Translations under genes and position numbers: made by a program
Source of the DNA: Bdellovibrionales bacterium
GTDB lineage: Bacteria > Bdellovibrionota > Bdellovibrionia > Bdellovibrionales > UBA1609
Direction of reading: 5' to 3'
Assembly (NCBI GenBank): GCA_965116175.1
Contig: OZ220490.1
Span: 65,466-129,465 of the forward strand
DNA: 64,000 bases
Shown here: positions 5,415-31,847 of the stretch, piece after piece
Layout of the letters: every line of letters starts with the position of its first letter
How positions within the stretch are numbered: position 1 is the stretch's first letter
Notes under the pieces: model-generated
What the model was told of the DNA's origin: nothing
The model's database searches: none
The model's input: the letters and a program-made list of their open reading frames with translations, nothing else

Positions 5415-6362
5415 GTGAAGGAATTTTCATTCATTTTTGCAGGGACTTCTGATTTTTCTCTGAAATGTTTAAAACTTTTAATGAAAATAGAGTCTTTATC
5501 TCTCAAAGGTGTTGTGACTCGTCCGGATACTGTAAAAGGCAGAGGTATGAAAACCCAAAGCTCTGATGTTAAATCCTTTGCTCAAGAATTGAATCTGCCC
5601 TGCTGGACTCCCAAAAAGTCAAATGATCCTGAATTTTTAAAGGCTATCATGCAGAAAAATTGTGAGTTTTCTTTTGTTTGCGCCTATGGACAAATTCTGC
5701 CTGTAAATTATCTTGAACTGTTTCCTAAAGGAAGTTTGAATTTACACCTCAGCCTTCTTCCCAAATGGAGGGGAGCGGCTCCTGTTCAAAGAGCTTTAAT
5801 GGCTGGCGATAAAAAGACCGGTATCTGTTTGCAGATTATGACAGAGGCTTTGGATGCCGGTGATATTATTGGACAAAGAAGTTTTGAAATTGAGGAGAAT
5901 GATAATGCTAGTGATATTTTTAATAAAGCTTTAATAAAGACAGAGTCTCTTTTGCGAAAAGAGCTTAAGATTTATCTTAAAGGGAGGCTTAAAGCCCAGC
6001 CTCAGGATCATTCCAAAAAAACTTACGCCAGAAAAATTGATAAAATAGAAGGAAAAATTTTGTGGGAAGAGTCAGCTCTTGATATTCATAATAAGGTGAG
6101 AGCTTTATTTTTAGGGCCTCAGGCTTTTACTTTTTTAAAAGGTCAGAGGGTGAAAGTCTATCAATCAAAAGTGTTGCAGAGGCATTTTTCTGATTATCTC
6201 CCAGGAGAGATTTGTCAGCTTGAAAAGGGACAGTTGACTGTTGCTTGTGGCCGGGGAGGCCTGGTATTGTTGGAGTTACAAAGAGAGGGGAAAAAAAGAC
6301 AAAAAATTAAAGATTTTTTAAGAGGGGCAGATTTACATTTAAAAGATTATTTTGGAAAGTGA
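5415..6362 (+). CDS. fmt: Methionyl-tRNA formyltransferase
   Basis: NLHLSLLPKWRGAAPVQRAL is the formyltransferase signature. GTG start with AGGAG 6 nt upstream. The gene sits directly after def, the classic def-fmt pair. Confidence 0.92.
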   Translation: MKEFSFIFAGTSDFSLKCLKLLMKIESLSLKGVVTRPDTVKGRGMKTQSSDVKSFAQELNLPCWTPKKSNDPEFLKAIMQKNCEFSFVCAYGQILPVNYLELFPKGSLNLHLSLLPKWRGAAPVQRALMAGDKKTGICLQIMTEALDAGDIIGQRSFEIEENDNASDIFNKALIKTESLLRKELKIYLKGRLKAQPQDHSKKTYARKIDKIEGKILWEESALDIHNKVRALFLGPQAFTFLKGQRVKVYQSKVLQRHFSDYLPGEICQLEKGQLTVACGRGGLVLLELQREGKKRQKIKDFLRGADLHLKDYFGK

Positions 6363-6570
6363 CATTTTATTTCAGATTTACTAAAGCTTGTCTCATAAGT
6401 ATAAGCATCATTTCAAAATTGGCTTTGAAGTCAGTTTAAGACTTTGTTTTCGTAATACTGATGAGGCATTTATGAGACAGTCTTTAACTAGAGAGATTTC
6501 ATCATAACAGAAATACAAAAGCTAAAATTTTTAAACAGAAAAGGGTATTTATCAATAAAGGTTAAAGAGA

Positions 6571-7221
6571 ATGGCTGTTTTAATTGCGCCCAGCTTACTT
6601 TCTAGTGATTTTTCCAAATTGGGGGAAGAGGTCAAAGCTTTGGAAAAAGCCGGGGCTGATTGGCTTCACTTTGATATTATGGACTCTCATTTTGTTTCCG
6701 ATCTTACTTTTGGGCCAGCTATTGTTCAGTCTTTGCGCCCCTTGAGTCCATTGTTTTTTGATACTCATCTTATGGTTTCTCACCCTGAAAGGTTTATAGA
6801 ACCTCTTGCCAGAGCTGGGTCCGACTGTATTAGCTTTCACTTTGAGGCTGTTTCCAATCCTCGGCCGCTATTAAAAAAAATTCAAAAACTTAATATTAAA
6901 GCTGGTCTTTCTATTAAGCCAGAAACCTCTGTGGAGGAGATTTTTTCTTTTTTGGAAAACCTGGATTTAATCTTGATTATGACAGTAGAGCCAGGAAAAG
7001 GCGGTCAAGCTTTTTTAAAAGATCAAGCGCAAAAGGTGGAACTTTTAAAACAGAAAATTTTCTCTTTTAAAAAACCCCCTCTTATTGCCGTTGATGGTGG
7101 AATCAATCCAGAAACAGCACAATTAGTTCAGAAAGCTGATGTTTTAATTTCTGGAAATTATATTTTTAAAAGTGATTCTTATTCTTCCAGTATCGCTAAG
7201 CTTAAAAATGCTCACTCATAA
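6571..7221 (+). CDS. rpe: Ribulose-phosphate 3-epimerase
   Basis: Contains IAPSLLSSDF, HFDIMDSHFV, DTHLMV, MTVEPGKGGQAF and VDGGIN. Confidence 0.92.
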   Translation: MAVLIAPSLLSSDFSKLGEEVKALEKAGADWLHFDIMDSHFVSDLTFGPAIVQSLRPLSPLFFDTHLMVSHPERFIEPLARAGSDCISFHFEAVSNPRPLLKKIQKLNIKAGLSIKPETSVEEIFSFLENLDLILIMTVEPGKGGQAFLKDQAQKVELLKQKIFSFKKPPLIAVDGGINPETAQLVQKADVLISGNYIFKSDSYSSSIAKLKNAHS

Positions 7222-7543
7222 TAAATTCCGCTCATCCTATTTAAGCCCAATTTGCTTTGTCTGGATTGGTTATGTATTTTTATATTAGAATAGAAATATC
7301 TGTTGAAAATAAAAGCGATGTAAAAGTTTAGATTTAAACAGGATGGCATAGAATCCAGACCAGAATTTGTATGAATGACAAAAGCCTTACCCCATTGAAT
7401 TTATAATTTTGTTTAATTCTTTCTTCCTGTTAGGACAAAAGTTGCAAAAAATACAAATTTTAAAAAAATGATTAAAAAATAATTTAAACTTAAAGAGGAA
7501 AAAATTAAAGAAAACATTTAAAAATTCCGTTTTTATATATGTT

Positions 7544-8920
7544 ATGTATCGTTATATTGTAAAGATTCTTTTAGCTTTAGCTCTTGCTGTTCTCATTTAT
7601 TCTCTGGGTGTGCCTGGGTGTTCCCCGACAGGTTTTATGAATGTGGAGACTGTCAGCTGTGAGGAGTTTTCCTCTGTTTTTCAGGTTGAGTCCTGTATGA
7701 AGGTGTCTGGAGAGACTGCGCCGGAAAAGGATAGGACTGAAGAAGAGCCAGAGGATGAAATCTCTAATGTTTTTGATAAAGATCCAAGAGATAAAGACTG
7801 GACTGAAAGATCTGACAAAGATTGGACTCCAAGAGAGAAAACTCCACTAAAAGATCTTCTTGAATTTGACTACACTATTTCTTTAGGCAAGGTTGATATC
7901 ATTTTTGTAATAGATAATTCCAGCTCAATGGCTATGGAGCATCGCAGTCTTGCTGATCAATTTGATAGCTTTTTAAGTGATCTCAAAAATGTGGATTATC
8001 ATATTGCTGTTATCACAACGGATATAAGCCGCTCTCCTGATAACCCTGTGAGAAATGCGATCTATCAGGATGGTAAGTTTCTTCCTATTGGAAGAAGAAT
8101 TTTTTTGAGAAATGAAAATATAGGCGGTAAACCCTCTTCTGATGTTAAAAGTGGTTTTCAAAGAGCTGTTGAAAGAAAAGAAACAATAGCTTGTGACGAT
8201 ACATCTGCTAAGCGTTCTTCTGGAGGAAGCAGAGCTGATGATTTTCATCGTCGGTTAAATCCTAGACGCTCCCTTCGATGCCCCAGCCATGATGAAAGAG
8301 GAACTTATGCCCTTAATGAAGCTCTGCGCAATCCAACGCATAGAGCCTTTTTTAGAGCAGATGCTCATCTCATTGTTGTTATTCTTAGTGATGAAGATAT
8401 TAGAAGTGGGGAAGAATACAGAAATCAGTATGGCAATGAAATATATGCTCTTGAGGATTTAGATAAGCCTGAGGTTTTAATTGAAAACTTATATAACCGA
8501 TTTCCTTTAAAGAGTGTCAGATTTTTCCCTATTATTATTGATCCCGGAGATGGCCATTGTTTTGATGAACAGTATGCTTCAAGAGCAGGAGGGGAAGGAT
8601 CAGGCCGAGGCTATTATGGAGTGGAATATGCCAGACTGGCGGAAGATCAAGGGCTTAGGCGCTATGGAAACCTTTTAGAAGGAAAAGTCATTTCTATTTG
8701 TGACAGAAATTATGGCTCTCAATTATCCAATATAGCTGTAGATGCCACTACAGCCAAAGTGCCTCTTCCCTGTGGAAATCCCTATAGTGTGGCTTTATAT
8801 ATAGATGGTGACAGAACCAGAATAGATTACAGCATTGAAGAAAGGACCTTGGTTATTGAACCGGGTGAAGTGAGATTAACAGCTGATCTTAGGTTAAAAG
8901 TAAGATGTGAGGCTGAATGA
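7544..8920 (+). CDS. Predicted lipoprotein with a von Willebrand factor type A (vWA)-like domain
   Basis: Signal peptide plus lipobox (LGVPGC). DIIFVIDNSSSM is a MIDAS DxSxS motif. The linker is acidic. Confidence 0.6.
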   Translation: MYRYIVKILLALALAVLIYSLGVPGCSPTGFMNVETVSCEEFSSVFQVESCMKVSGETAPEKDRTEEEPEDEISNVFDKDPRDKDWTERSDKDWTPREKTPLKDLLEFDYTISLGKVDIIFVIDNSSSMAMEHRSLADQFDSFLSDLKNVDYHIAVITTDISRSPDNPVRNAIYQDGKFLPIGRRIFLRNENIGGKPSSDVKSGFQRAVERKETIACDDTSAKRSSGGSRADDFHRRLNPRRSLRCPSHDERGTYALNEALRNPTHRAFFRADAHLIVVILSDEDIRSGEEYRNQYGNEIYALEDLDKPEVLIENLYNRFPLKSVRFFPIIIDPGDGHCFDEQYASRAGGEGSGRGYYGVEYARLAEDQGLRRYGNLLEGKVISICDRNYGSQLSNIAVDATTAKVPLPCGNPYSVALYIDGDRTRIDYSIEERTLVIEPGEVRLTADLRLKVRCEAE

Positions 8921-21040: not shown

Positions 21041-21116
21041 TCAGGTGTAGCTCAGCTGGTAGAGCAAGTGGCTGTTAACCACTGGGTCGGGGGTTCGAGT
21101 CCCTCCACCTGAGCCA
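21041..21116 (+). tRNA. tRNA-Asn (anticodon GTT), CCA encoded
   Basis: Hand-folded cloverleaf: acceptor tcaggtg/cacctga, D stem gctc/gagc, anticodon stem agtgg/ccact, loop ctGTTaa, T loop ttcgagt. Confidence 0.93.
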
Positions 21117-21337
21117 TTTTTGCAGGTTGCTCCTTCGTTAGTCTATTCTGGAGACATACTTTACACTTTCTCTATCCGAATTGAATAAAAAGGCGCAAAA
21201 TAAAATTAAAACATCTCAAAAAGTGGATTTTTTGCTATAAAATGAGCTACTGACTCTGGATTTGGAATGGAAACTCTTGTAAGGTATGGAAGAATTGAGG
21301 GGAATATACCAAGATATGATACACTGGTGTTGTTGCT

Positions 21338-21805
21338 ATGTCTGAAATACATATAAAAATAGACGGTCAGGAAAAGATATGGCCCGAGGCTGTTATAACT
21401 CCTAAAGATATTTTAGAGTTTGAGAAAAAACAGGAGCCTTATGATGCCTATGTTATTTTTAAAATTCAAGGAGATAAAAAGCAGGAAGTATGGAATGGAA
21501 CGGCAAAGGATGATTTGCATAAAAATATAGAAATTAAAAATGATGATGTATTTTATATTGAACATAAGCCAAAAGATTTAAAAATATATTATACTGTCAA
21601 TGGGGAAACACAAGAAATTTTAGCGTCAGATAACAAACTGACGGTTGTCCAAATACTTGAGAAAGCAAAATTTGTCCCTGTGGAAAAATTTAAACTGTTT
21701 AATGCTAAAACAAAAACAGATTATACAAACCCCAGTCAAGAAATAATTGTTCAAAATGGAGATGAGTTTTTAGCTCTATCTTCAGGGCCGACTCCTGTTG
21801 CATAA
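21338..21805 (+). CDS. Ubiquitin-like protein with two tandem beta-grasp (multiubiquitin-type) domains
   Basis: Two ~75-aa halves share the same pattern: IHIKIDGQEKIW..ITPKDILEF...NDDVFYI, and IYYTVNGETQEI...LTVVQILEKAKF...NGDEFLALSSG. It is the first gene of the E2/E1-JAB operon. Confidence 0.7.
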   Translation: MSEIHIKIDGQEKIWPEAVITPKDILEFEKKQEPYDAYVIFKIQGDKKQEVWNGTAKDDLHKNIEIKNDDVFYIEHKPKDLKIYYTVNGETQEILASDNKLTVVQILEKAKFVPVEKFKLFNAKTKTDYTNPSQEIIVQNGDEFLALSSGPTPVA

Positions 21806-22232
21806 TTCAGTGGAAGATTTAACGAATCAAATTCAAAAGGAAATAAAAAAGATTCTCTCTTGTGAATTACATCAGATACAAGAGATGAAAAATTGGAACT
21901 CATCTTTAAATAGAGATGGTTACCTATGCATATTTAAGTATGTGATTCCATGTGGTTCTCTAGAGAATAAAAAAATCACGATTGGTGTAGAACTTCCGCT
22001 AAATGATTATCCAAGATTACCGCCTCATTTTATACATTTAAAACAAGAGGAGTTTAGTGAAGAGAAAAGACAAAAAATGGATAAGATACATGAAGAGTAT
22101 GAAAATAATGGAGAAACTTGGCTGACGCTTAGTCGTCCTCCTCAAGATATATGGGATGATTTGGATAATTCAAAAAAAAATTTGCATACCTTTTTTGAAT
22201 CACATTTAAGAAGAGTTTGGAAGAATTTATGA
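21798..22232 (+). CDS. E2/UBC-fold-like protein (prokaryotic E2 family) lacking a Cys at the expected active-site position
   Basis: DYPRLPPHFIHL resembles the E2 YPxxPPxxxF block. HEEYENNGETWLTLSRPP occupies the position of HPN...G.IC. TTG start at 21798 (alternative GTG at 21810) overlaps the Ubl gene stop. The E2 stop overlaps the next start as ATGA. Confidence 0.6.
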   Translation: MHNSVEDLTNQIQKEIKKILSCELHQIQEMKNWNSSLNRDGYLCIFKYVIPCGSLENKKITIGVELPLNDYPRLPPHFIHLKQEEFSEEKRQKMDKIHEEYENNGETWLTLSRPPQDIWDDLDNSKKNLHTFFESHLRRVWKNL

Positions 22233-23662
22233 AATATGAAGTCACTTTAACCGAAAAAGCTCATAGTATCGCCTGCAACCATTTATTATCTCATTTTAAG
22301 CAAAATAAACTTCAAGAAGAACTGTGTTTTGCGCTTTGGTATCCTTGTAGCGGCAAGAGCAAGACAACAGCTCTAATCTCTGAGATTATTCTTCCTGAAG
22401 GAAATGAACGGAAGCTTCATGGCAATACAAGTTTTCTACCGCAGTTTTTAGCTCGTTCATTACGAATAGCTATAAAAAAGAAAGCGGGGCTTGCTTTTAT
22501 GCACAGTCATCCGACAAAGGGATGGCAGGATATGAGTGGCCCGGATATTATTGCAGAAAAAGATCGCATAGCATCACCTGCTAACAGTACAAATATGCCT
22601 TTGATTGGTTTAACAGTGGGCATAGATGAAAGTTGGAGCGCCAGATTCTGGATAAAAGAGAAGAACAGAAGATTTAAACGATTTTGGTGTGATAAAGTAA
22701 AAGTGATTGGAAATTGTTTAAAAATCACATTTAATGAGCAGGCGTATAATACATTTCAAAATAAAAATATTTTGCGGAGGACTATTGAAACCTGGGGATC
22801 AGATGAGCAGTTAAAAATCAGCAGAATGACAGTGGGGGTTGTAGGTATTGGCAGTGTAGGTTCAATGGTTAGTGAGAATTTGGCGAGAATAGGAATCGGA
22901 AATATTGTTTTAATAGATCACGATAAAATTGAAGAGCATAATTTAGACAGATTGCTTTACGCTACCAAAAAAGATATCGGAAAGTTTAAGTCTGAGTTCT
23001 TTAAAACTAAGATACTTAAGCATTCTGTGAATGAAAATGTGAAAGTAAACTCCCTAATACAACCTATACAATCACAGTCTGCGTTCAGATTGGCTTTGGA
23101 TTGTGATATTATTTTCAGTTGTGTAGATAAACCTTTGGCGAGAGATATTTTAAATCATATAGCTTATGCTCATTTGATACCTGTTATTGATGGAGGCATT
23201 GCGGTGAATAAAAGATACGACAAGTTTTCTGATGCTCGCTGGAGTTCTCATATTATATCCTATGGGCGCAAATGTATGTTATGTAGAAAGCAATATACAA
23301 CTTCAGATGTTTCTATGGAACTTGATGGTTCTCTTGAAGACCCCTCTTATATTGAAAGCTTACATTCAAGCCGGGGGTTTGGAAATGAGAATGTTTTCCC
23401 TTTCAGTCAAAATTTGTCCAGTATAGAGGTGTTAATGATGATACGCTTTTTACTATTTAAGGACTGGTGGCCAAAATTAAATAGTTTGGAATATAATTTT
23501 TTATCAGGGCAAATGAATATAGATGAATCTTCTTGCAATAAAGGATGTTATTTTTTAAGTATTATTGGAAAAGGGGATACAAATCGTATTAAACTATTAC
23601 AAGAAGATGTAAAATTTGAGAAAAGAAATTTATTAAATCTTATTCTTAAATTATGGAGGTAA
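22229..23662 (+). CDS. JAB/JAMM metallopeptidase - E1 (ThiF/MoeB-type adenylyltransferase) fusion protein
   Basis: The N-terminal part has QEELCFAL and HSHPTKGWQDMSGPD, a JAMM E...HxH...SxxD motif with 8 residues rather than the canonical 7 between the second His and the Ser. The C-terminal part has the Rossmann motif GVVGIGSVGSMVSENLARIGIGNIVLIDHDKIEEHNLDRL plus Cys pairs (CMLC, CNKGC). The ATG at 22229 overlaps the E2 stop (ATGA). Confidence 0.85.
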   Translation: MKYEVTLTEKAHSIACNHLLSHFKQNKLQEELCFALWYPCSGKSKTTALISEIILPEGNERKLHGNTSFLPQFLARSLRIAIKKKAGLAFMHSHPTKGWQDMSGPDIIAEKDRIASPANSTNMPLIGLTVGIDESWSARFWIKEKNRRFKRFWCDKVKVIGNCLKITFNEQAYNTFQNKNILRRTIETWGSDEQLKISRMTVGVVGIGSVGSMVSENLARIGIGNIVLIDHDKIEEHNLDRLLYATKKDIGKFKSEFFKTKILKHSVNENVKVNSLIQPIQSQSAFRLALDCDIIFSCVDKPLARDILNHIAYAHLIPVIDGGIAVNKRYDKFSDARWSSHIISYGRKCMLCRKQYTTSDVSMELDGSLEDPSYIESLHSSRGFGNENVFPFSQNLSSIEVLMMIRFLLFKDWWPKLNSLEYNFLSGQMNIDESSCNKGCYFLSIIGKGDTNRIKLLQEDVKFEKRNLLNLILKLWR

Positions 23663-23664
23663 TT

Positions 23665-24939
23665 ATGAAAATCAATGAAATAAGTCTAAAAAACTTAAGA
23701 TGTTTCCCTAAAGCAGAAAGCGCGATTCGTCCTATCACTGTAATTGTGGGTGAAAATAATACAGGAAAAACGACATTCTTATCCACTTATAAACTTATTC
23801 ATGATTTGTTGTATGAAGATAAACCTATAAAGCCTTCGTCTATAGAAGATTTATTGAAGGGGGAAACTTATAAATATCTTGGGGGGCCTAAGCATATTGT
23901 TAGGACACAGGATAATGCCGATATAGTGAATATAGGAGCAACTTTAAAAATTGGAGAACAAGATATCTGGAATGTGGAATATTCAATAAAAAATGGAAAA
24001 TTCTGTGAGAAGATTTTAATACATTGCTTTGAAAATAAGATAGAAGTAAAATTAACAGAAGGCAGTATAATGGAGTTTCTTATAAATGGACAACAGGGGT
24101 ATAATTCTACTACACCTGCTCATTTTTCTATTCACTTTTTTGGAGTTATTTCTTTTTTGTGTAATGAGCTAAAAAATAAACTTGAGAAAAATGAAATTTT
24201 ACATTCAAAAATAACTTCTGTTATAAGGTTTAAAGAAAGTGGCATTTTAAAAAATATATCTTGTAATCTTCTTGATCCGATTCACTTAAAGCCGAAATCC
24301 CAGTATAATCAAACAGAGATTAAAACTACAGATCCATCTTATGTTTTATGTGAAATGGCAGAGATGAAGAAAAATAACAACTGGAGTAAAATAAGAGAGG
24401 AATTTAATAAATTTGGTAAAGCCTCAAAACTTTTTCAAAGTCTGGATATAGATATATTAGATGAGAGTAATGGCGAGTCTCCATTTTCAATAAAAGTTAC
24501 AGTTGATGAGTTATCATCAGATATTACAAATGTTGGTCATGGGGTAAGCCAGTTTTTACCTATGTTGGCAAACCTATTTATTTCAGATTCAGAAAAATAC
24601 AACACCTTTCTAATGCAACAACCGGAAACTCATCTTCATCCTAGAGTAGAAGCTGAATTTGCTACTCTTATGATTAACATGATAAATAAACACAAAGAAA
24701 AATATAAATTTATTTGTGAAACTCATAGTGATTATATTATTCAGAGGGCTCGTATTGAAATCAAAGAGCAAAAGCTAAACCCTAAAGATTTTTTAATACT
24801 TTATTTTGAACTAAAAAATGGAGAAGCAAAAATTTATCCTATCACTATTGATTCAAATGGAAACTTTGAAAATCAACCAAACAGCTATAAGGCATTCTTT
24901 TTGTCAGAAGATTACAAACTTTTAGGCTTAAAAGATTGA
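23665..24939 (+). CDS. ABC-type/AAA_21-like ATPase (SMC/OLD-family N-terminal ATPase fold, no Toprim seen)
   Basis: Walker A is VGENNTGKTT, preceded by ISLKNLRCF. Signature-like GHGVSQFLPML is present. Walker B/D-loop is FLMQQPETHLHP and the H-loop is CETHSDYI. GGAGG lies 6 nt upstream of the ATG at 23665, inside the E1 gene end. Confidence 0.75.
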   Translation: MKINEISLKNLRCFPKAESAIRPITVIVGENNTGKTTFLSTYKLIHDLLYEDKPIKPSSIEDLLKGETYKYLGGPKHIVRTQDNADIVNIGATLKIGEQDIWNVEYSIKNGKFCEKILIHCFENKIEVKLTEGSIMEFLINGQQGYNSTTPAHFSIHFFGVISFLCNELKNKLEKNEILHSKITSVIRFKESGILKNISCNLLDPIHLKPKSQYNQTEIKTTDPSYVLCEMAEMKKNNNWSKIREEFNKFGKASKLFQSLDIDILDESNGESPFSIKVTVDELSSDITNVGHGVSQFLPMLANLFISDSEKYNTFLMQQPETHLHPRVEAEFATLMINMINKHKEKYKFICETHSDYIIQRARIEIKEQKLNPKDFLILYFELKNGEAKIYPITIDSNGNFENQPNSYKAFFLSEDYKLLGLKD

Positions 24940-24993
24940 ACCTGATAATGTTTGTCTTATTTTTGGCAGTGTGATTCAAAAGAAAGGAATATT

Positions 24994-25461
24994 ATGAAGT
25001 TATCGCGTAAAGGAATAATTATTGACGCAGAAGCTTTTCACAAGTTTATAAATATAAATCATGAAGATTCAAAACCTGTCCATCAATGTATTAAGAAAGG
25101 AACATTAAAATTAGTATATGGCAATGATAAAAAAAGTTCAGATGAAATAAAAAGAGACAGCCGTATGATCGATATGCTGGGAAAATTAACAAGAGCTGGA
25201 GCTGTTTATCAAGCCAATTCAAAAGAAAAGAAAAAGGAAATTGATGCTAAGGATAGAATTATAGAAGGCACACAATTAAAATCTAACGATACACATATTA
25301 TTGCTATAGCTTTAGTGGAAAAAAAGGCCAGGTTGTTATTTAGCGTCAGCAGAGGCGATAAGAAATTGCATAAAGATTTTAGAAACCCCAAAATAATAAA
25401 AGAACCCCGAGGAAATATATATCAGGAATACAGCAAACATTCAGGTTTGTTACCGCGATAA
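24994..25461 (+). CDS. PIN-like domain protein (predicted nuclease)
   Basis: GIIIDAEAF is a beta1 Asp-type strand. SNDTHIIAIALVEKKARLLFSVSRGDKKLHKDF...PRGNIY resembles a PIN-like family pattern (sND.H.lALA....ARLL.t.D..L..DF...PRG.vY). The ATG at 24994 has an AAAGGAA RBS; the track ORF opens earlier, at TTG 24952. Confidence 0.45.
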   Translation: MKLSRKGIIIDAEAFHKFININHEDSKPVHQCIKKGTLKLVYGNDKKSSDEIKRDSRMIDMLGKLTRAGAVYQANSKEKKKEIDAKDRIIEGTQLKSNDTHIIAIALVEKKARLLFSVSRGDKKLHKDFRNPKIIKEPRGNIYQEYSKHSGLLPR

Positions 25462-25657: not shown

Positions 25658-26339
25658 TTACCTCTTCCTTTTCACAAAAGAAATAAGGGAATTACTTGGA
25701 AATTTTTGGAAATGCACTTCATAACTGAGTTTGTTTGTGCTCCCTTTTACTCCCACACCTGCCAAGCGGTTATAAATATCTGTTGTGGCTATCTTTCTAT
25801 GTCCTACAATAGACATCACAACATTTAAGGCCGCTCCTTTGGCTAACTGTTGGTAATATAAGAGCTCTCTCAAGTCATGGAATCTCAGTTCAGGGATATT
25901 TATCCCTTTACAAAAATCCCTCAGAAACCTTGATTGCTTTCCTTGTTTCTATTCTCCCACTCTTGGAAAAGTAAGTTTTCCCAGACAAATACTTTTTCTT
26001 GTTTGGCTTCATAAAGAGTTTCTTTATAACCGCCTTTAGCAATATACCACTCTAAAAGGGGTCTTAATTCCAGCTATAGAACAACACGATTAAGACTGGT
26101 CTTTGTTTCATTAGATGTAAATTGTTTTTTTACATAGATAGTCCCTGCTGATAAATCCACATCAGAAACTCTAAGAGCATATATCTCTCCATTCCGGCCA
26201 CTGCCCAATGAGGATAAAACCTGTGGTTGCAAATATGAGCTTCTTTTAAAAGCTTATCCGCTTCCTCAGAAGTTAAAATCTTTTGTTCAGGTGAGGGAAG
26301 TTTGATTTTAATCTTTTTTCCGGAGTTTTTGTTGATCAC
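25658..26339 (-). pseudogene. Tyrosine recombinase (phage-type integrase) remnant, frameshifted and N-terminally truncated
   Basis: The fragments give GRNGEIYALRVSDVDLSAGTIYVKKQF (catalytic-domain R box, in a different frame from the 26130..26339 ORF) and VVMSIVGHRKIATTDIYNRL (the HxxxxxTTxxY C-terminal box with the catalytic Tyr). Stops and frameshifts lie between them. Confidence 0.8.
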
Positions 26340-26413: not shown

Positions 26414-26692
26414 TTATAAACTTGGACTGATTTCTTCTTCTTGGGCAGGGCGAGCTTCTTTTAAAGAAAGATTTTTGGCAAACAAGCCTCTGGCTGTTCT
26501 GACAACTAAGACTTCTACAATATCCCCTTTATTAAGCTTTTCATAAGAAGTATTGGTAAATTCTGTTACAGTGGAAAAGTATACATCTTGTTTATTTTGT
26601 TTATCCCAAATAGCACCAAAACCAATATCCGGCATAATCCGACGGATGGCTCCTTTAGCTGTTCCTTTTACCTCTAACACTTTCTCATACAT
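26414..26692 (-). CDS. Cold-shock-domain (CSD/OB-fold)-like small nucleic-acid-binding protein
   Basis: GAIRRIMPDIGFGAIWD...QDVYFS...LNKGDIVEVLVV..ARGLFAKNL parallels the CspA pattern G.VKWF...GFGFI...DVFVH...L.eGq.V.f....kG..A.nv. Confidence 0.55.
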   Translation of the reverse strand: MYEKVLEVKGTAKGAIRRIMPDIGFGAIWDKQNKQDVYFSTVTEFTNTSYEKLNKGDIVEVLVVRTARGLFAKNLSLKEARPAQEEEISPSL

Positions 26693-26774: not shown

Positions 26775-29639
26775 TTATAAAGAAATACAATCCTTTGTAA
26801 CCAACTCTTTTAAATTTTTGACAACCTGTGGCAATCCAGGGCCTGTGATCTTTTCGCCTTTAGATTCTTTTTCAGATAAATCTAAATTTAGTTGCAAAAG
26901 AAAATCCAGTTCATCCTGATTTGTTTTGAAGCCATAAGCAGAATAAACAGCCTCATCTAAAGCTTTATGATATTTTAGCAATTCATGATCCCCAGGTAAT
27001 TCTATAGAACGATATAAATCACGATAGCTTATCCCTTCTTTTTTTAAAATTTTTGCTCTTACTTCTCTTAAATTTCTAGCTTTTTTAGCAACTGTCTTTA
27101 TCTTGGCTAATGTAGGTTTCTGTGGCCAAGGGAAAGTGTCATATACTGTGTTAGTTGTGTAGCGAAAAGTCTCAGCTAAAGTTGAACACTTATGAGTGAA
27201 CCAAATCCAATGCATACTGGATTGTAAAATTCCAAAAGAATAATCGTCATCAAAAGTAAAAGCGACCAAAGCTGCATTTGGGTTTATATCTGAATGGACA
27301 AACTCAAAGATACCTCTTTGTGTAACTTGTCCACAAACACAGTATCTTTTTATTTTTCTAATTTTCTTCATTAAATCTGTTCTAGGATAAGATAACTGCC
27401 ACCATGTTTTTAAAAAATTCTGATGATGTCTATTCACCCTGGCTTTAGGGTTTGTCTTTAGTAGCTTTTTGTTTCGAGCTTTTTCCTTCTCTGCTTCCTC
27501 TCTCCTTTTTGGTAAAACTGTTTTTTCTATGACTTTATATAATCCTTTATATTTTTGAGCCTGTATTAGAGTTTTATCTGAAAAATCTATAACATATCTT
27601 TGAGGCAAGGGAGTTTTCCCAGCTATAAAATTATGAGCTGTTAAAAAAGGCTTTAAAACATCTTTAAAATTTATGTTTTTTGAAATATTTTTTTCAGCTT
27701 CGTTTTTTGGAAGAAGAAAAGAAGCATGTCCATGTGTTTGACCTTGAGAAGCCGCCTTAGATTTTCTATTAACATTTAATACTTTAGCTTGAGAAACATC
27801 TACATCAATAGACAAAGCAGAATTAATCTCTTTTAGCTCGTTAACATGTAATTCTTGTTCATAACCATCAAGATATATACTTTTTCCTATGAACAGCCTC
27901 TTTTTTTTATTTTTATATAATTTATCCTTTGTCCAATTTACTATAGACACATAAACAGCGGCTTCACCAGACCATTTTTGGCTAGACACAGCTTCTGTAA
28001 TGATGCCTCCGTTTTGAACAATATGATCCAAAGAGCCTTCTCTGGAATAGTTTTGCCGAATAGTGTTTGTTCCAACCAATCCAGCTATACCTTTTTTTGA
28101 AAGATGGTCATGGGCTTTTTTAAACCAATAAACACAATAATCCGCTCTTCCTGGCACAGTGGGATAAGCTTCACGAATTTTGTTTATATAGCTTACTCCC
28201 ATTTCTTGTTGGATTTTGTTCTTGGATTGATACGGTGGATTACCAATAATAGCATCCACTTTAGGCCACACAGCAAACAAAGCATCTTCAGCCAAAAAGT
28301 TATTATCCAAGTCATCAAACGGCAAAGAGGAGTCTTGTATATTAAACTCATCAGCTAAAATTTTTCGACCAATGGATAAAGCTACTTTTGCTAATTCCAA
28401 CCCAAATTTGTTTGTATCAATACCATAAAAGTTTTTTGGGGAAACAAGCAAGCCAAGTTCTGAGGGGCGAATTTGTCCTCCTTCTCCTAAATCTTCTAAA
28501 ATTTCCATTTCAAGTTTTCTTAACTCCCTAAAGGCGATATAAAGAAAATTTCCACTACCACAAGCCGGATCTAAAACTTTAAATTCTTGTATTTCTTTTA
28601 ATAGTTTTCTTTTGTTTCTTTTTGTTTTTGCCTTGTTTATTTTTTCTTTAAATGGTTGGACAATAGAGGGCCCAACAATTTTATATATGTCTAATTCATG
28701 AGTATAATGGATGCCGTGACCGTGTCTTCTTTTTGGATCCATACTGCCTTCAAAAAGAGAACCAAATATAGATGGTCTTACTTTTTCCCAATTTTGCTTT
28801 GAGGCATCATGTAGCAGTTCCACTTCTTTATAAGATAGCTCCACTGCATCAGTTTTCTTAAAAATTCCCCCATTAAAATATTCAATATGTTTATATTTTC
28901 TTGGTTTATCAAACTTATTTTTTATTGCCATTGCCTTAAATAAGAGAGACAGTTCTTTTTGAGCTGGAAGATCAATTAAGCATTTTTTTAAAATTTCATG
29001 CAAAGTATATTGAGGTATCAATCCAACATCTTCTGAAAACAGAGCTATAACCAATTGGAGTATAAATCTCTGGGCCTTATCTTTTGATATTCCTCTTTTC
29101 TCCATAGACATATAGATTTCACCAATAGTTTTTGCAACCTGTTCTGTGATAGCTACATTATGATTATCAAATAGAGGCTCTTCCTCTACAGGCAAAAGAA
29201 ACTTTAAAGCGCCCCAACTCATTTGAAGGTCTTTTGTATTCAGCTTATGAACAGGATCGTTTAATTGGTTGTTTAAATCGTATATCCAAAACTCATCAAA
29301 ATTACATAAAACCATATACTTTGGACGACTAGGAACTAGAGTAATCCAGTAATCAAAAGCTTGATCATAATGCTTCTGAAGAGGCATGCCTCTCTTTTTT
29401 AATTCAATAATTACTCTAGGCTTCCAAACAAGATCAGGGAAAATAACCCCTCTGCCTTTTCGTTTTTTGACTGGTAGTTCACAAATGGCTCCCGCCCCTA
29501 GAACTCCTGTATTGCCAAAAGCTTGAAGAAGCCGATCAAAAAATATCTGACCTTCTCCTTTTTCAGAACCTTTACAATTCTTGAACCAGTCTAAAAAAGC
29601 TTTGATTCTCTCTTGATGTTCTTTCTGGTTGATTGTCAT
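26775..29639 (-). CDS. MmeI-family type IIL (IIG) restriction endonuclease / N6-adenine DNA methyltransferase fusion
   Basis: The N-terminal PD-(D/E)XK block FPDLVWKPRVIIELKKRGMPLQKHYDQAFDYW closely parallels MmeI FVDLFWPGILLIEMKSRGKDLDKAYDQALDYF as I recall it. The SAM motif I is VLDPACGSGNFLY and motif IV is IIGNPPYQS. The 954 aa size is typical of the family. Confidence 0.88.
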   Translation of the reverse strand: MTINQKEHQERIKAFLDWFKNCKGSEKGEGQIFFDRLLQAFGNTGVLGAGAICELPVKKRKGRGVIFPDLVWKPRVIIELKKRGMPLQKHYDQAFDYWITLVPSRPKYMVLCNFDEFWIYDLNNQLNDPVHKLNTKDLQMSWGALKFLLPVEEEPLFDNHNVAITEQVAKTIGEIYMSMEKRGISKDKAQRFILQLVIALFSEDVGLIPQYTLHEILKKCLIDLPAQKELSLLFKAMAIKNKFDKPRKYKHIEYFNGGIFKKTDAVELSYKEVELLHDASKQNWEKVRPSIFGSLFEGSMDPKRRHGHGIHYTHELDIYKIVGPSIVQPFKEKINKAKTKRNKRKLLKEIQEFKVLDPACGSGNFLYIAFRELRKLEMEILEDLGEGGQIRPSELGLLVSPKNFYGIDTNKFGLELAKVALSIGRKILADEFNIQDSSLPFDDLDNNFLAEDALFAVWPKVDAIIGNPPYQSKNKIQQEMGVSYINKIREAYPTVPGRADYCVYWFKKAHDHLSKKGIAGLVGTNTIRQNYSREGSLDHIVQNGGIITEAVSSQKWSGEAAVYVSIVNWTKDKLYKNKKKRLFIGKSIYLDGYEQELHVNELKEINSALSIDVDVSQAKVLNVNRKSKAASQGQTHGHASFLLPKNEAEKNISKNINFKDVLKPFLTAHNFIAGKTPLPQRYVIDFSDKTLIQAQKYKGLYKVIEKTVLPKRREEAEKEKARNKKLLKTNPKARVNRHHQNFLKTWWQLSYPRTDLMKKIRKIKRYCVCGQVTQRGIFEFVHSDINPNAALVAFTFDDDYSFGILQSSMHWIWFTHKCSTLAETFRYTTNTVYDTFPWPQKPTLAKIKTVAKKARNLREVRAKILKKEGISYRDLYRSIELPGDHELLKYHKALDEAVYSAYGFKTNQDELDFLLQLNLDLSEKESKGEKITGPGLPQVVKNLKELVTKDCISL

Positions 29640-29865: not shown

Positions 29866-29955
29866 TGGCGGAGAGGGAGGGATTCGAACCCCCGAGACCC
29901 GTGAAGGTCTGCCGGTTTTCAAGACCGGTGCAATCAACCGCTCTGCCACCTCTCC
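29866..29955 (-). tRNA. tRNA-Ser (anticodon TGA), long variable arm, CCA encoded
   Basis: The reverse complement folds as: acceptor ggagagg/cctctcc, anticodon stem ccggt/accgg with loop ctTGAaa, an extra arm, and T loop ttcgaat. Confidence 0.92.
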
Positions 29956-30286: not shown

Positions 30287-30591
30287 GGTAGTCATGCATT
30301 CATTACGGTCGATCCAGTGATGAGGTCTCTCTGGAGGGCAGGTATTTATACAAGAGTCTGTAGCTGTATCCCATTTCGGTTTTTCCGGAGGGCAGACCAC
30401 ACATCTAAATCCATCAGAGAATCCTGGGTCATCATCTAGGGGTAGTCATGCATTCATTACGGTCGATCCAGTGATGAGGTCTCTCTGGAGGGCAGGTATT
30501 TATACAAGAGTCTGTAGCTGTATCCCATTTCGGTTTTTCCGGAGGGCAGACCACACATCTAAATCCATCAGAGAATCCTGGGTCATCATCT
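30287..30591. repeat. Tandem direct duplication, 2 x 151 bp (period 154 bp), covering the 3' end of the 30432..31847 gene
   Basis: ggtagtcatgcattcattacggtcgatcc...cctgggtcatcatct is present at 30287-30437 and again at 30441-30591. Confidence 0.9.
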
Positions 30592-31847
30592 GTCCCGCAA
30601 GAGATATCACACACTCCCCGCCGGTTTTCTGCAGCCTTACTCCGAGCAGTGCCTGGAACACAGCGGTCGAAACACCAGCGGTTTATACATCTTTGATTTG
30701 ATGAACAAGCAGGTGAACATTCAGATTCTGGCGGCGGGGTTTTAGATTCTGGCGGCGGGGTTTTAGATTCTGGCGGCGGGGTTTTAGATTCTGGCGGCGG
30801 GGTTTTAGATTCTGGCGGCTGTTGGTTGTTATTGCCGGAATTATCGCCTCCGCCACCGCTGACTGTGCCGCCAATTAAACCTTGACACAAATCATCCACC
30901 CAATCATCCAGATCCCCCACATCCCCTATCTCATTGCTGTTGCTCCCAGCCGCATCCTCATGGATCCAACCACTCGCATTCCTATTATTTCCTGTCCCCT
31001 GACGGCTATTCACTTTCTCATCTATTATCTCCTCTATATACTCCTCAAAATCATCATGGTTCAACCAATCATCCCTCGCATCATCATCCATCCCTTTTCC
31101 TATCTTACAATACACCGCAAAACAAGCCCTCGTCTCCGTATCACTCTTACAAGCGCTATTCTTGTTATTTATATACTCCTGAAACCAATCCAATATCAGC
31201 TCACTTTCCACAGCCTTCTCTATCAACTTATCCCCATCCAACCTCTTCAAAAACGGTTCAGATATCCCATGATCATTACTGCTATAACTCCCGCTGAACT
31301 TCTTCAATAAAGCCTCTAAACTCTTATGATCATCATCTTCTTTCTCAAATATCTTCGCAATATCCTCATTCTCTATCAACCACATTAAAAACTCCTTCGC
31401 ATCCCTGCTGTTATACTTCTTAATCAAACTATCCAATGATCTTATCGAAACATTCAAATACAAATCAAAAACATCCTTATCCACCCCTGATAAATCCTCC
31501 GCATCCGGGTTCTTTAACAACTCATACAAATCCCATAAGGCCTCCACCTGAGCCACTGTCAACTCTTCACAATCCCCTCGATCCCCACGGCTCCTATACA
31601 TATCCTTACAATACTCATAACAATCATGGCTTTTATTCTTATCCTCACATTTTTCTGTATCCCCTCTTATCGTCCTGGCTGTACGCTTGATCACCTCATC
31701 CCTGTTCTCATCATTGGCCTTCTTAACCTCATATTCATTCTCTGTCCTTTCTACAGCTGGCGGACCAAAACAAGAACCTACATAAACAAGCAGTAAACTT
31801 ATCAGCGCTACTCTTAGGCAGTTCATAAAAAATCCCCTGTCAGTCAT
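30432..31847 (-). CDS. Secreted acidic protein with (KTPPPES)n linker and Cys-rich C-terminal modules
   Basis: It has a signal peptide/lipobox-like N-terminus (LLLVYVGSC), a D/E-rich helical region, GGGDNSGNN, PPESKTP x5, and a C-terminal ~100 aa with 16 Cys. Confidence 0.65.
   Translation of the reverse strand: MTDRGFFMNCLRVALISLLLVYVGSCFGPPAVERTENEYEVKKANDENRDEVIKRTARTIRGDTEKCEDKNKSHDCYEYCKDMYRSRGDRGDCEELTVAQVEALWDLYELLKNPDAEDLSGVDKDVFDLYLNVSIRSLDSLIKKYNSRDAKEFLMWLIENEDIAKIFEKEDDDHKSLEALLKKFSGSYSSNDHGISEPFLKRLDGDKLIEKAVESELILDWFQEYINNKNSACKSDTETRACFAVYCKIGKGMDDDARDDWLNHDDFEEYIEEIIDEKVNSRQGTGNNRNASGWIHEDAAGSNSNEIGDVGDLDDWVDDLCQGLIGGTVSGGGGDNSGNNNQQPPESKTPPPESKTPPPESKTPPPESKTPPPESECSPACSSNQRCINRWCFDRCVPGTARSKAAENRRGVCDISCGTDDDPGFSDGFRCVVCPPEKPKWDTATDSCINTCPPERPHHWIDRNECMTTPR
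30724..30819. repeat. 21-bp tandem repeat, 4 perfect units plus a partial fifth (encodes KTPPPES on the minus strand)
   Basis: gattctggcggcggggtttta recurs at 30724, 30745, 30766 and 30787, with a partial unit at 30808. Confidence 0.9.

Follow-up and report, generated by a model that had tools for sequence, protein, structure and literature searches.

A five-gene cassette in Bdellovibrionales that joins a Bub-type ubiquitin-like triad to an ABC ATPase and a PIN-fold protein

We have analyzed a stretch of DNA of 64,000 nucleotides (the window) from contig OZ220490.1 of a Bdellovibrionales bacterium (assembly GCA_965116175.1, positions 65,466 to 129,465 of the forward strand), in which a prediction made from the sequence alone (the original prediction) had singled out a row of five packed genes as a candidate defense system. 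Five open reading frames, all on the plus strand, were verified at the coordinates that had been predicted, and they span 21338-25461. The first three, which we refer to as the triad, appear to encode a ubiquitin-like protein (Ubl), an E2-like protein, and a fusion of a JAB/JAMM peptidase to an E1 enzyme; the other two, the pair, encode an ABC ATPase and what is predicted to be a protein with a PIN fold. The cassette and the DNA just upstream of it are laid out as follows, with L001-L072 denoting the related contigs and loci that were used for comparison:

21160-21337, plus strand: non-coding stretch that moves with the cassette, a probable promoter region (CTCTGGACTTGAAATGGAAACTCTTGTAAGGTATGG, partly kept in L001, L003, L007, and L010)
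21338-21805, plus strand: gene 1, Ubl, 155 amino acids
21810-22232, plus strand: gene 2, E2-like protein, 140 amino acids
22229-23662, plus strand: gene 3, JAB/JAMM peptidase-E1 fusion, 477 amino acids
23665-24939, plus strand: gene 4, ABC ATPase, 424 amino acids
24994-25461, plus strand: gene 5, PIN-fold protein, 155 amino acids

The packing of the genes, with its overlaps and ribosome-binding sites, was as the original prediction had described it, save at one start codon. The stop codon of the Ubl gene (TAA, 21803-21805) is where it had been placed, and the GTG at 21810 comes after a 4-nt spacer. A TTG at 21798, which would have put that stop codon inside the start region of gene 2, had also been proposed, but the orthologues of gene 2 are 140 amino acids long and begin at the position of the GTG (ATG in L005 and L008), and we therefore take 21810 as the start. 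The stop codon of gene 2 overlaps the start codon of gene 3 in an ATGA at 22229-22232. At the next junction, a GGAGG (23655-23659) lies within the 3' end of gene 3, whose stop codon (TAA, 23660-23662) is followed 2 nt later by the ATG of the ATPase gene (23665). Finally, the ATG of gene 5 (24994) is preceded by AAAGGAA and lies 54 nt downstream of the ATPase stop codon. These last three junctions read just as predicted. Approximately 150 nt on the 5' side of the cassette are partly conserved between loci, and the DNA farther upstream is unrelated. A promoter scan was uninformative in that promoter-like sites were rarer than in shuffled controls, and a scan for terminators returned terminator-like sites at the level expected by chance.

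Profile searches and structural models together supported the assignments that had been predicted for all five proteins (Ubl, E2, JAB-E1, ATPase, and PIN-like), although for the Ubl and the E2 the support is moderate and indirect. For gene 3 it is strong: the protein is, as judged by homology, a JAB-E1 fusion and a homologue of BubCD. Its ThiF domain scores 122 bits, and its best match in the PDB is Citrobacter BubCD (9ea4; E 1.8e-21 in the single-sequence search, 1.5e-24 in the profile search), in an alignment of residues 49-328 that takes in both JAB and E1, from the HSHP of the JAMM motif through the adenylation core, and in which the S..D of the JAMM motif is aligned as well. The PADLOC 'E1-E2' models, by comparison, cover only the adenylation core (residues ~145-325). 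The JAMM motif (E30, H92-S-H94, S103..D106), the ThiF Rossmann motif (G-x-G-x-x-G), and the cysteine pairs that had been read from the sequence are all present. Invariant in eight orthologues are E30, H92, H94, and D106, the nucleotide-binding glycines together with R241, and both cysteine pairs, a CxxC at 349-352 and a CxxxC at 436-440. The pairs are spaced like the zinc-binding pairs of MoeB/ThiF-type enzymes, and we presume that they form a probable zinc site.

The loop between C352 and C436 has no cysteine that is invariant in the eight orthologues (and none at all in the protein from the window), from which it follows that gene 3 is likely to lack a catalytic E1 cysteine. Two tyrosines of this crossover loop, Y356 and Y374, are invariant in the same eight proteins, and the L020 clade, at 43% identity, retains both. 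A crossover loop that is free of cysteine and carries a catalytic tyrosine (Y370) is the hallmark of BubCD (bioRxiv 10.1101/2024.11.21.623953). In its sequence, gene 3 matches this defining oddity, and oxyester chemistry is predicted for it. Gene 3 is also the most constrained of the five genes, with a ratio of nonsynonymous to synonymous substitution (dN/dS) of ~0.1.

Gene 1 would be, with moderate and indirect support, a BubA-like pro-Ubl. The Pfam model Multi_ubiq scores 21 bits against it, which is under the Pfam cut-off, and matches the N-terminal half of the protein in seven of seven orthologues (best E 1.3e-6). The original prediction had seen two beta-grasp halves; the N-terminal one is borne out by these matches, whereas for the second one we have a weak in-register alignment of the two halves (hhalign E 0.021), and a BLASTP comparison of one half with the other gave no match. 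The protein ends in DEFLALSSG150-PTPVA, and its last 14 residues are invariant among the orthologues. This invariant tail beyond Gly150 implies trimming by the JAB domain to expose Gly150, analogous to the cleavage of BubAB. The dN/dS of gene 1 is ~0.19. Single-sequence and profile searches of the PDB with gene 1 returned nothing meaningful; the sole PDB match in the sequence searches of genes 1, 2, and 5 was a spurious one to a designed-repeat protein.

Gene 2 is assigned, likewise with moderate and indirect support, to the Prok-E2_E lineage as a BubB-like protein. The predicted YPxxPPxF block is present as YPRLPPHF, and the invariant residues are YPRLPPH73F, H94, S108-R-P-P, and S131-H132. 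Conserved across the whole family of gene 2 relatives are YPxxPPH, S108 of SRPP, a W-D, and a C-terminal histidine, and the family has no conserved cysteine. Weak matches to Prok-E2_E were obtained for seven of the 17 family members and weak matches to RWD for ten. A profile of the 17 reached 54 remote proteins among 1.84 billion representatives; some of these are ~230-290 amino acids long and match gene 2 at their C-terminal end, and three remote relatives (201-236 amino acids) have weak matches to Multi_ubiq and/or Prok-E2_E, one of them to both. In an hhalign comparison gene 2 aligned with the Ubl-E2 fusion of L023, a protein that clears the Pfam cut-off for Prok-E2_E, at a probability of 94.9% (E 4.7e-8). 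In an AlphaFold2 (AF2) model (predicted local distance difference test [pLDDT] 90), a helix, four strands, and the YPxxPP element are placed at positions typical of the UBC/RWD fold. Sequence and profile searches of the PDB with gene 2 gave nothing meaningful and no match to BubB. Neither gene 1 nor gene 2 is covered by a model in PADLOC or NCBIfam.

Gene 4 is strongly supported, on homology, as an NsnB-like ABC ATPase (OLD-ABC/AAA_15) with a DUF3696-like C-terminal tail. It matches the Pfam models AAA_15 (E 1.1e-21), AAA_21 (E 1.7e-14), and, weakly, DUF3696 (E 0.019); the best PADLOC model is NsnB (1.2e-35), followed by PDC-M55A (1.3e-31) and AriA (4.1e-27), and in the PDB it matches the OLD-family enzyme 6p74. 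The Walker A motif (GENNTGKT) and the H-loop (ETHS) are as predicted, and the signature is VGHGVSQ (GxG). The predicted Walker B, FLMQQPETHLHP, departs from the canonical form in that its DE dyad is replaced by QQ, as it is in every member of the ATPase family (gene 4 and 16 relatives). Conserved in these 17 proteins are GENxTGKT, QQPExHLHP, the GxG signature (VGxGVSQ), and ETHS. A GxG rather than SGG signature and a non-DE Walker B are traits of NsnB (PMC12065111). The QQ resembles the E-to-Q substitutions of hydrolysis-dead ABC/SMC mutants, and gene 4 may therefore work as a switch that binds ATP, not as a fast hydrolase.

The sequence of gene 5 has no match in Pfam, PADLOC, NCBIfam, or the PDB, in profile searches as well. 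The PIN-like pattern that had been noticed in it is nonetheless backed at the level of the fold, and modeling argues strongly that gene 5 is a stand-alone PIN-fold protein. Its AF2 model, built for a family of ~30 proteins, has a pLDDT of 93 and a predicted TM-score of 0.87; the best Foldseek match is a VapC toxin (5x3t_B, E 4.9e-4, TM-scores 0.55/0.61, probability 1.00), and VapC11, VapC2, and then Utp24, Nob1, and PAE0151 are among the further matches. D11, E51, D99, and D122 (and also D128) are invariant in 23 sequences. In the model the first four map to the end of beta1, to the helix that follows beta2, to the point where helix 100-108 begins, and to a position past beta4; the acidic tetrad would thus sit where the D-E-D-D residues of PIN nucleases are expected. 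We take gene 5 to be a putative RNase effector.

The cassette is not confined to the window. The five genes recur in the same order in L001/L004, L003, L005, L006, L007, L008, L010, L018, and L019, which brings the tally to the window plus at least nine other Bdellovibrionales contigs, and the cassette is intact in nine of ten (in L008, gene 5 is broken by a frameshift at 8001-8449). Its flanks show no similarity between loci. The most divergent copy, L019, retains 57, 50, 75, 45, and 39% identity for genes 1 to 5, respectively, so that the ATPase and the PIN gene recurrently follow the triad, as the original prediction had anticipated, down to 45% and 39% identity. The junction between the E1 and ATPase genes is 3 nt or less, or an overlap, in all ten cassettes, and in L019 the ATPase and PIN genes overlap too. 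Across the five genes dN/dS ranges from 0.08 to 0.33, with the E1 at the low end and the PIN gene at the high end, and the ranks of identity of the E1 and of the ATPase are congruent across cassettes. All relatives of gene 5 among the GTDB species representatives are Bdellovibrionales metagenome-assembled genomes; since the cassette has turned up in no other order, its conservation in part reflects shared ancestry. We found no relatives of the gene 3 JAB-E1 in IMG/VR or among GenBank phages and no relatives of gene 5 in plasmids, which argues against a phage- or plasmid-borne origin.

Each of the two modules also exists alone. Within the cassette clade, pair-only loci are L002 and L012 (mutually syntenic) and L013, and L013 carries a 95-amino-acid remnant of the JAB-E1 C-terminus (6685-6963) ahead of an intact ATPase and PIN pair. 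L011 retains only the ATPase and a 19-amino-acid stub of gene 5 (8324-8380). A triad without the ATPase was not seen in this clade. Outside it, L009, L014, and L016 have distant ATPases (~29% identity), and the next gene in each encodes a 138-amino-acid homologue of gene 5 (hhalign probability 98.4%); in all three of these loci, the ones examined, the pair stands without a triad. These distant partners have weak matches to PIN and PIN_12 and none to a PADLOC or NCBIfam model. In a neighbor-joining tree of the ATPases (which carries no support values), the distant pairs branch off as an outgroup, L019 takes the basal position, and the pair-only loci sit nested within the five-gene ones. This nesting suggests that an ancestral two-gene module gained the triad once and that some loci later lost it. 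L014 has a gene for DUF559 (a Vsr-like endonuclease) that overlaps the start of the ATPase gene of its distant pair (5465-7764, ~30% identity), which hints that in other lineages different input or auxiliary genes may fill the slot upstream of the ATPase. A second pair, AAA_15 plus DUF3226, lies close by in the same locus.

The triad, for its part, occurs without the pair in L020-L027, the nearest JAB-E1 clade outside the cassettes (41-45% identity), as a WYL-regulated set of Ubl, Prok-E2_E, and JAB-E1 with no ATPase or PIN gene. In L020 (5259-8389) this triad consists of a split Ubl, E2, and JAB-E1 with a WYL-WCX (CapW/BrxR-like) regulator and no BubE. Another stand-alone split triad without BubE is found on the mobilizable actinobacterial plasmid pCCa of Clavibacter (L072, 4188-6479), where it is annotated as multiubiquitin, hypothetical (125 amino acids), and ThiF and adjoins the toxin-antitoxin systems AbiE and HigA.

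The island setting that had been predicted for the cassette (tRNA genes, a restriction-modification enzyme, and an integrase relic) was found. A tRNA-Asn gene (21041-21116) and a tRNA-Ser gene (29866-29955) bracket the region; Rfam detected these two tRNAs and nothing else, and no att-like or tRNA-derived direct repeat was found between them. Between the cassette and the tRNA-Ser gene lie the following, the integrase relic and the cold-shock-like frame being located between the cassette and the restriction-modification gene:

25658-26339 and 26414-26692, minus strand: integrase-like broken open reading frames (weak Phage_integrase match, E 7e-3) and a 92-amino-acid cold-shock-domain-like open reading frame
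26775-29639, minus strand: MmeI-family type IIL restriction-modification enzyme, 954 amino acids (matches to MmeI_N, MmeI_hel, MmeI_Mtase, MmeI_TRD, and MmeI_C)

An MmeI-like gene adjoins the cassette in L010 as well, in the other orientation, and the neighbors in L002, L010, L012, and L013 include restriction-modification genes, AAA_13, BrxC-like ATPases, TIR, and Gp49/HTH. It is from this context alone (the restriction-modification enzyme, the integrase relic, the tRNA genes, and the defense neighbors of other loci) that we infer a role in defense. Farther along the window, the minus strand at 30432-31847 encodes a 471-amino-acid, secreted-looking protein with approximately five tandem PPESKT repeats and a cysteine-rich C-terminus, which explains an extreme GC skew (-0.57) at 31-32 kb.

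How does the cassette compare with systems that have been described? The Type I Bub (6E.1) operon consists of BubAB, BubCD, and BubE, and BubE/DUF6527 is said to be present in all published operons (bioRxiv 10.1101/2024.11.21.623953). The triad resembles it in its JAB-E1 fusion, both domains of which are homologous to BubCD; in the cysteine-free E1 crossover loop with an invariant tyrosine; in an E2-like protein, assigned to the Prok-E2_E lineage, with a conserved serine and no conserved cysteine; in a Multi_ubiq Ubl that would need C-terminal processing to a bare glycine; and in its site beside tRNA genes in a mobile or defense locus. Unlike in Bub, however, the Ubl and the E2 are split, in all orthologues, by a stop codon, a 4-nt spacer, and a change of frame, and the Ubl has a five-residue tail where Bub has the fused E2 (more distant relatives of gene 2 do show Ubl-E2 fusions). 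No BubE/DUF6527 was found among the five proteins or in the Pfam tables of L001, L010, L018, and L019; the cassette also lacks a CapW or CapH/CapP regulator, and an ABC ATPase gene and a PIN gene are translationally coupled downstream. With neither the Ubl-E2 fusion nor BubE, it is not a member of Type I Bub in the strict sense. The triad is nevertheless, judging from its sequences, specifically of the cysteine-free Bub/6E.1 type, with its BubCD homologue, and not Bil- or Cap2-like.

The pair, on the other hand, is closest to Menshen (Millman 2022; Li et al. NAR 2025). Gene 4 is nearest to NsnB, with its AAA_15 domain, DUF3696-like tail, GxG signature, and non-DE Walker B; the gene right after it encodes a protein with a PIN-like fold, which the N-domain of NsnC also has; and the gene order is one of input, ATPase, and effector. 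In Menshen itself, NsnC has a catalytically dead PIN-like N-domain that is predicted to dock onto DUF3696 of NsnB, and a C-terminal nuclease that does the damage (PMC12065111). Gene 5, by contrast, consists of the PIN domain only, lacking a BECR or any other nuclease domain at the C-terminus, has no match to the PADLOC NsnC model, and keeps the D-E-D-D that is missing from all Menshen inPIN families. The Walker B has QQ where NsnB has EN, and NsnA (ParB-DUF262 plus ParBDB) was found neither in the window's cassette nor in the table of any related locus; the Ubl-E2-JAB/E1 triad lies in its upstream slot. Because NsnA is absent, the PIN protein stands alone, and the acidic tetrad is kept, we regard genes 4 and 5 as Menshen-like but not as Menshen; without NsnA and a two-domain NsnC, membership of that system was rejected.

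Other known systems are less alike. PARIS and Septu, in which an ATPase regulates a bound nuclease (PMC12065111), share the two-gene logic of an ABC ATPase and a small nuclease, the AriA model matches gene 4 (E 4e-27), and the expected mechanism is one of sequestration and then release of a toxin. The effector here, however, has a PIN fold rather than a Toprim/DUF4435 (AriB) or HNH (PtuB) domain, gene 5 has no AriB, Toprim, or DUF4435 match, and the AriA and PtuA scores for gene 4 are weaker than that for NsnB. Type II CBASS, Pycsar, and 6A-MBL resemble the cassette in that an E1/E2/JAB module is accessory to a sensor-effector core that is also found without it, which is paralleled here by the pair-alone and five-gene forms. 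But Cap2 of CBASS is an E2-E1 fusion with catalytic cysteines that conjugates the C-terminus of the CD-NTase itself rather than that of a Ubl, and its JAB, Cap3, is a protein on its own, whereas the cassette has a dedicated Ubl, the order JAB-E1, no such cysteines, no nucleotide second messenger, and no CD-NTase. BilABCD likewise combines a Ubl, E2, JAB, and E1 in defense islands, and its JAB pre-processes the Ubl; its E1, however, has a tandem IAD-AAD-CYS architecture and uses thioester chemistry, its JAB is a separate protein, and among the solved E1 enzymes BubCD is by far the best match of gene 3. Membership of PARIS, Bil, and CBASS was thus rejected on effector, E1, and CD-NTase features, respectively. 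Finally, VapC toxins are the best structural matches of gene 5, with the acidic tetrad at the expected secondary-structure positions, but gene 5 has no VapB antitoxin, is partnered by an ABC ATPase, and lacks a sequence-level PIN match. No named system with this composition was found in PADLOC v2, NCBIfam, the tables of the Bub survey (which have no Bdellovibrio and no ATPase-linked entries), or the Menshen study, in keeping with the original prediction, and a literature search for the five-part combination turned up only the multi-system paper of Millman 2022. Each part, then, belongs to a recognized type (Bub/6E lineage, NsnB-like OLD-ABC ATPase, or PIN nuclease), and the five-gene composition was absent from the surveys that we checked.

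The identities of the genes and their motifs, the fold of gene 5, the homologies, the conservation, the tight coupling, and the modular history are shown by these observations. We tentatively favor, with a confidence that falls a little short of even, the interpretation that the cassette is one fused, mobile operon of a defense island in which the triad is an accessory input or regulatory layer on a PIN RNase held by the ATPase. The biochemical steps, the physical links of ATPase to PIN and of triad to ATPase, and the target in the scheme that follows are ones that we infer, with the conjugation chemistry modeled on that of Bub (bioRxiv 10.1101/2024.11.21.623953). The JAB domain would cut PTPVA off the pro-Ubl, baring Gly150, which the E1 domain would adenylate; the Ubl would then move as an oxyester from the crossover-loop tyrosine (Y374 or Y356) to S108 of the E2 and would be joined by an isopeptide bond to a lysine of a target protein. 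The ATPase, as an NsnB/AriA-like oligomer, would hold the PIN RNase by its DUF3696-like tail until a trigger released or activated it. From the slot that NsnA occupies in Menshen, the triad would license, prime, or tune the ATPase-PIN complex by Ubl conjugation, as Cap2/Cap3 do for the CD-NTase; the target would be the effector complex itself or an invader protein that is then recognized by the ATPase, and the infected cell would in the end have its RNA cleaved and its growth arrested. A more specific proposal, which we consider possible but doubtful, is that a Bub-type tag on the ATPase/PIN complex or on an invader protein acts as the switch by which the ATPase lets go of an active PIN RNase. 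If true, this would be the first dedicated bacterial Ubl found to control an effector made of an ABC ATPase and a nuclease, and Bub-type pathways would gain a defined downstream read-out.

Several considerations weigh against this interpretation. The cassette is known from a single order of uncultivated bacteria, and the claim is tempered by that restriction and by its purely computational basis. Both modules are autonomous elsewhere, so their co-transcription could be a convenience of packing in an island, and protection against phage has yet to be demonstrated for any Bub operon (bioRxiv 10.1101/2024.11.21.623953). Gene 1 probably carries two beta-grasp halves, but the claim of a tandem is weak. 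The model of gene 2 had no significant Foldseek match in the PDB, BubB included (E2 folds appeared in the list only at ranks 19, 29, and 48, with TM-scores of 0.3-0.39), and its assignment as an E2 therefore rests on profile homology; moreover, the layout of its serine and histidine residues is not demonstrably that of BubB (D299/S333/H335). The QQ of Walker B may mean that gene 4 binds ATP with barely any hydrolysis, and the activity of the PIN protein is predicted from the conservation of residues and their secondary-structure positions.

The main rival is that the cassette holds two independent defense systems on one transcript, co-inherited on one mobile element, a reading that we regard as possible, though less than probable. 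In its detailed form, which we hold with similar reserve, the Bub-like triad would modify invader proteins as Bil does, and the ATPase and PIN would separately mediate abortive infection in the manner of PARIS or Menshen. Both modules do occur singly in other places, the triad in L020-L027 and pCCa and the pair in L009, L014, and L016; the pair stays intact after loss of the triad in L002, L012, and L013, and clustering is common among defense systems. It is harder to reconcile with two systems, however, that the E1/ATPase junction is so tight in every one of the ten cassettes and that the cassette is whole where its faster-evolving genes are down to 39-57% identity and its flanks are unrelated; the divergence of triad and ATPase likewise ranks congruently with no sign of reassortment, and the clade contains no triad-only derivative. 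The opposite arrangement, in which the pair serves the triad (as a negative regulator or safety device in place of BubE, or as an addiction toxin) and Ubl conjugation is the output, would account for the absence of BubE/DUF6527, whose downstream slot the pair fills, and PIN proteins are classic toxins of toxin-antitoxin systems. We consider it unlikely: an ATPase plus a nuclease is an implausible substitute for an isopeptidase, the intact JAB domain could itself deconjugate, the cassette has no antitoxin-like gene, and the pair, which in the ATPase tree is older than the triad, is still found where the triad is missing.

A role outside defense, for example in stress-induced RNA turnover, in proteostasis during the predation cycle, or in inter-bacterial conflict, with the island site incidental, would suit a cassette that is confined to one order of predatory or epibiotic lifestyle, has no relatives in phage and viral collections, and is inserted among housekeeping genes in L001. 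Against this stand the patchy, mobile distribution with decayed copies in L008 and L011, the restriction-modification, BrxC-like, and TIR neighbors, and the fact that the effector genes evolve fastest, as they do in conflict systems; such a role strikes us as improbable. The suggestion that gene 3 is a ThiF/MoeB-type adenylyltransferase acting on a ThiS/MoaD-like sulfur carrier in a metabolic locus draws on the ThiF and MoeB models, which do match gene 3, and on the spacing of its cysteine pairs, which is that of MoeB/ThiF types. It is effectively refuted by the N-terminal JAMM domain, the adjoining E2-family gene, the tail of the pro-Ubl past its glycine, BubCD as the best solved relative, and the lack of thiamine or molybdopterin genes nearby, and it was rejected also on NCBIfam scores far under the cut-offs (e.g., 85 versus 275 bits).

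What would a functional link between triad and pair mean? For Bub-type (6E) systems, structures have been solved and an unprecedented oxyester chemistry described, but there is no known target or demonstrated phenotype (bioRxiv 10.1101/2024.11.21.623953). For Menshen, a logic of sensor, transducer, and effector has been proposed, in which it is unexplained how the input reaches the ATPase (PMC12065111). The cassette ties a Bub-type triad to an ATPase and a PIN protein, with natural controls at hand in the pair-only derivatives, the ancestral stand-alone pairs, and the stand-alone triads. Were the link functional, Bub-type conjugation would acquire a tractable read-out, either toxicity that depends on PIN or RNA cleavage, and gene 5 would be an active-PIN relative, possibly representing the ancestral state, of the inactivated PIN adaptor of Menshen. 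The cassette would then also be a second case, after Cap2/Cap3, of ubiquitin-like machinery that regulates bacterial immune effectors.

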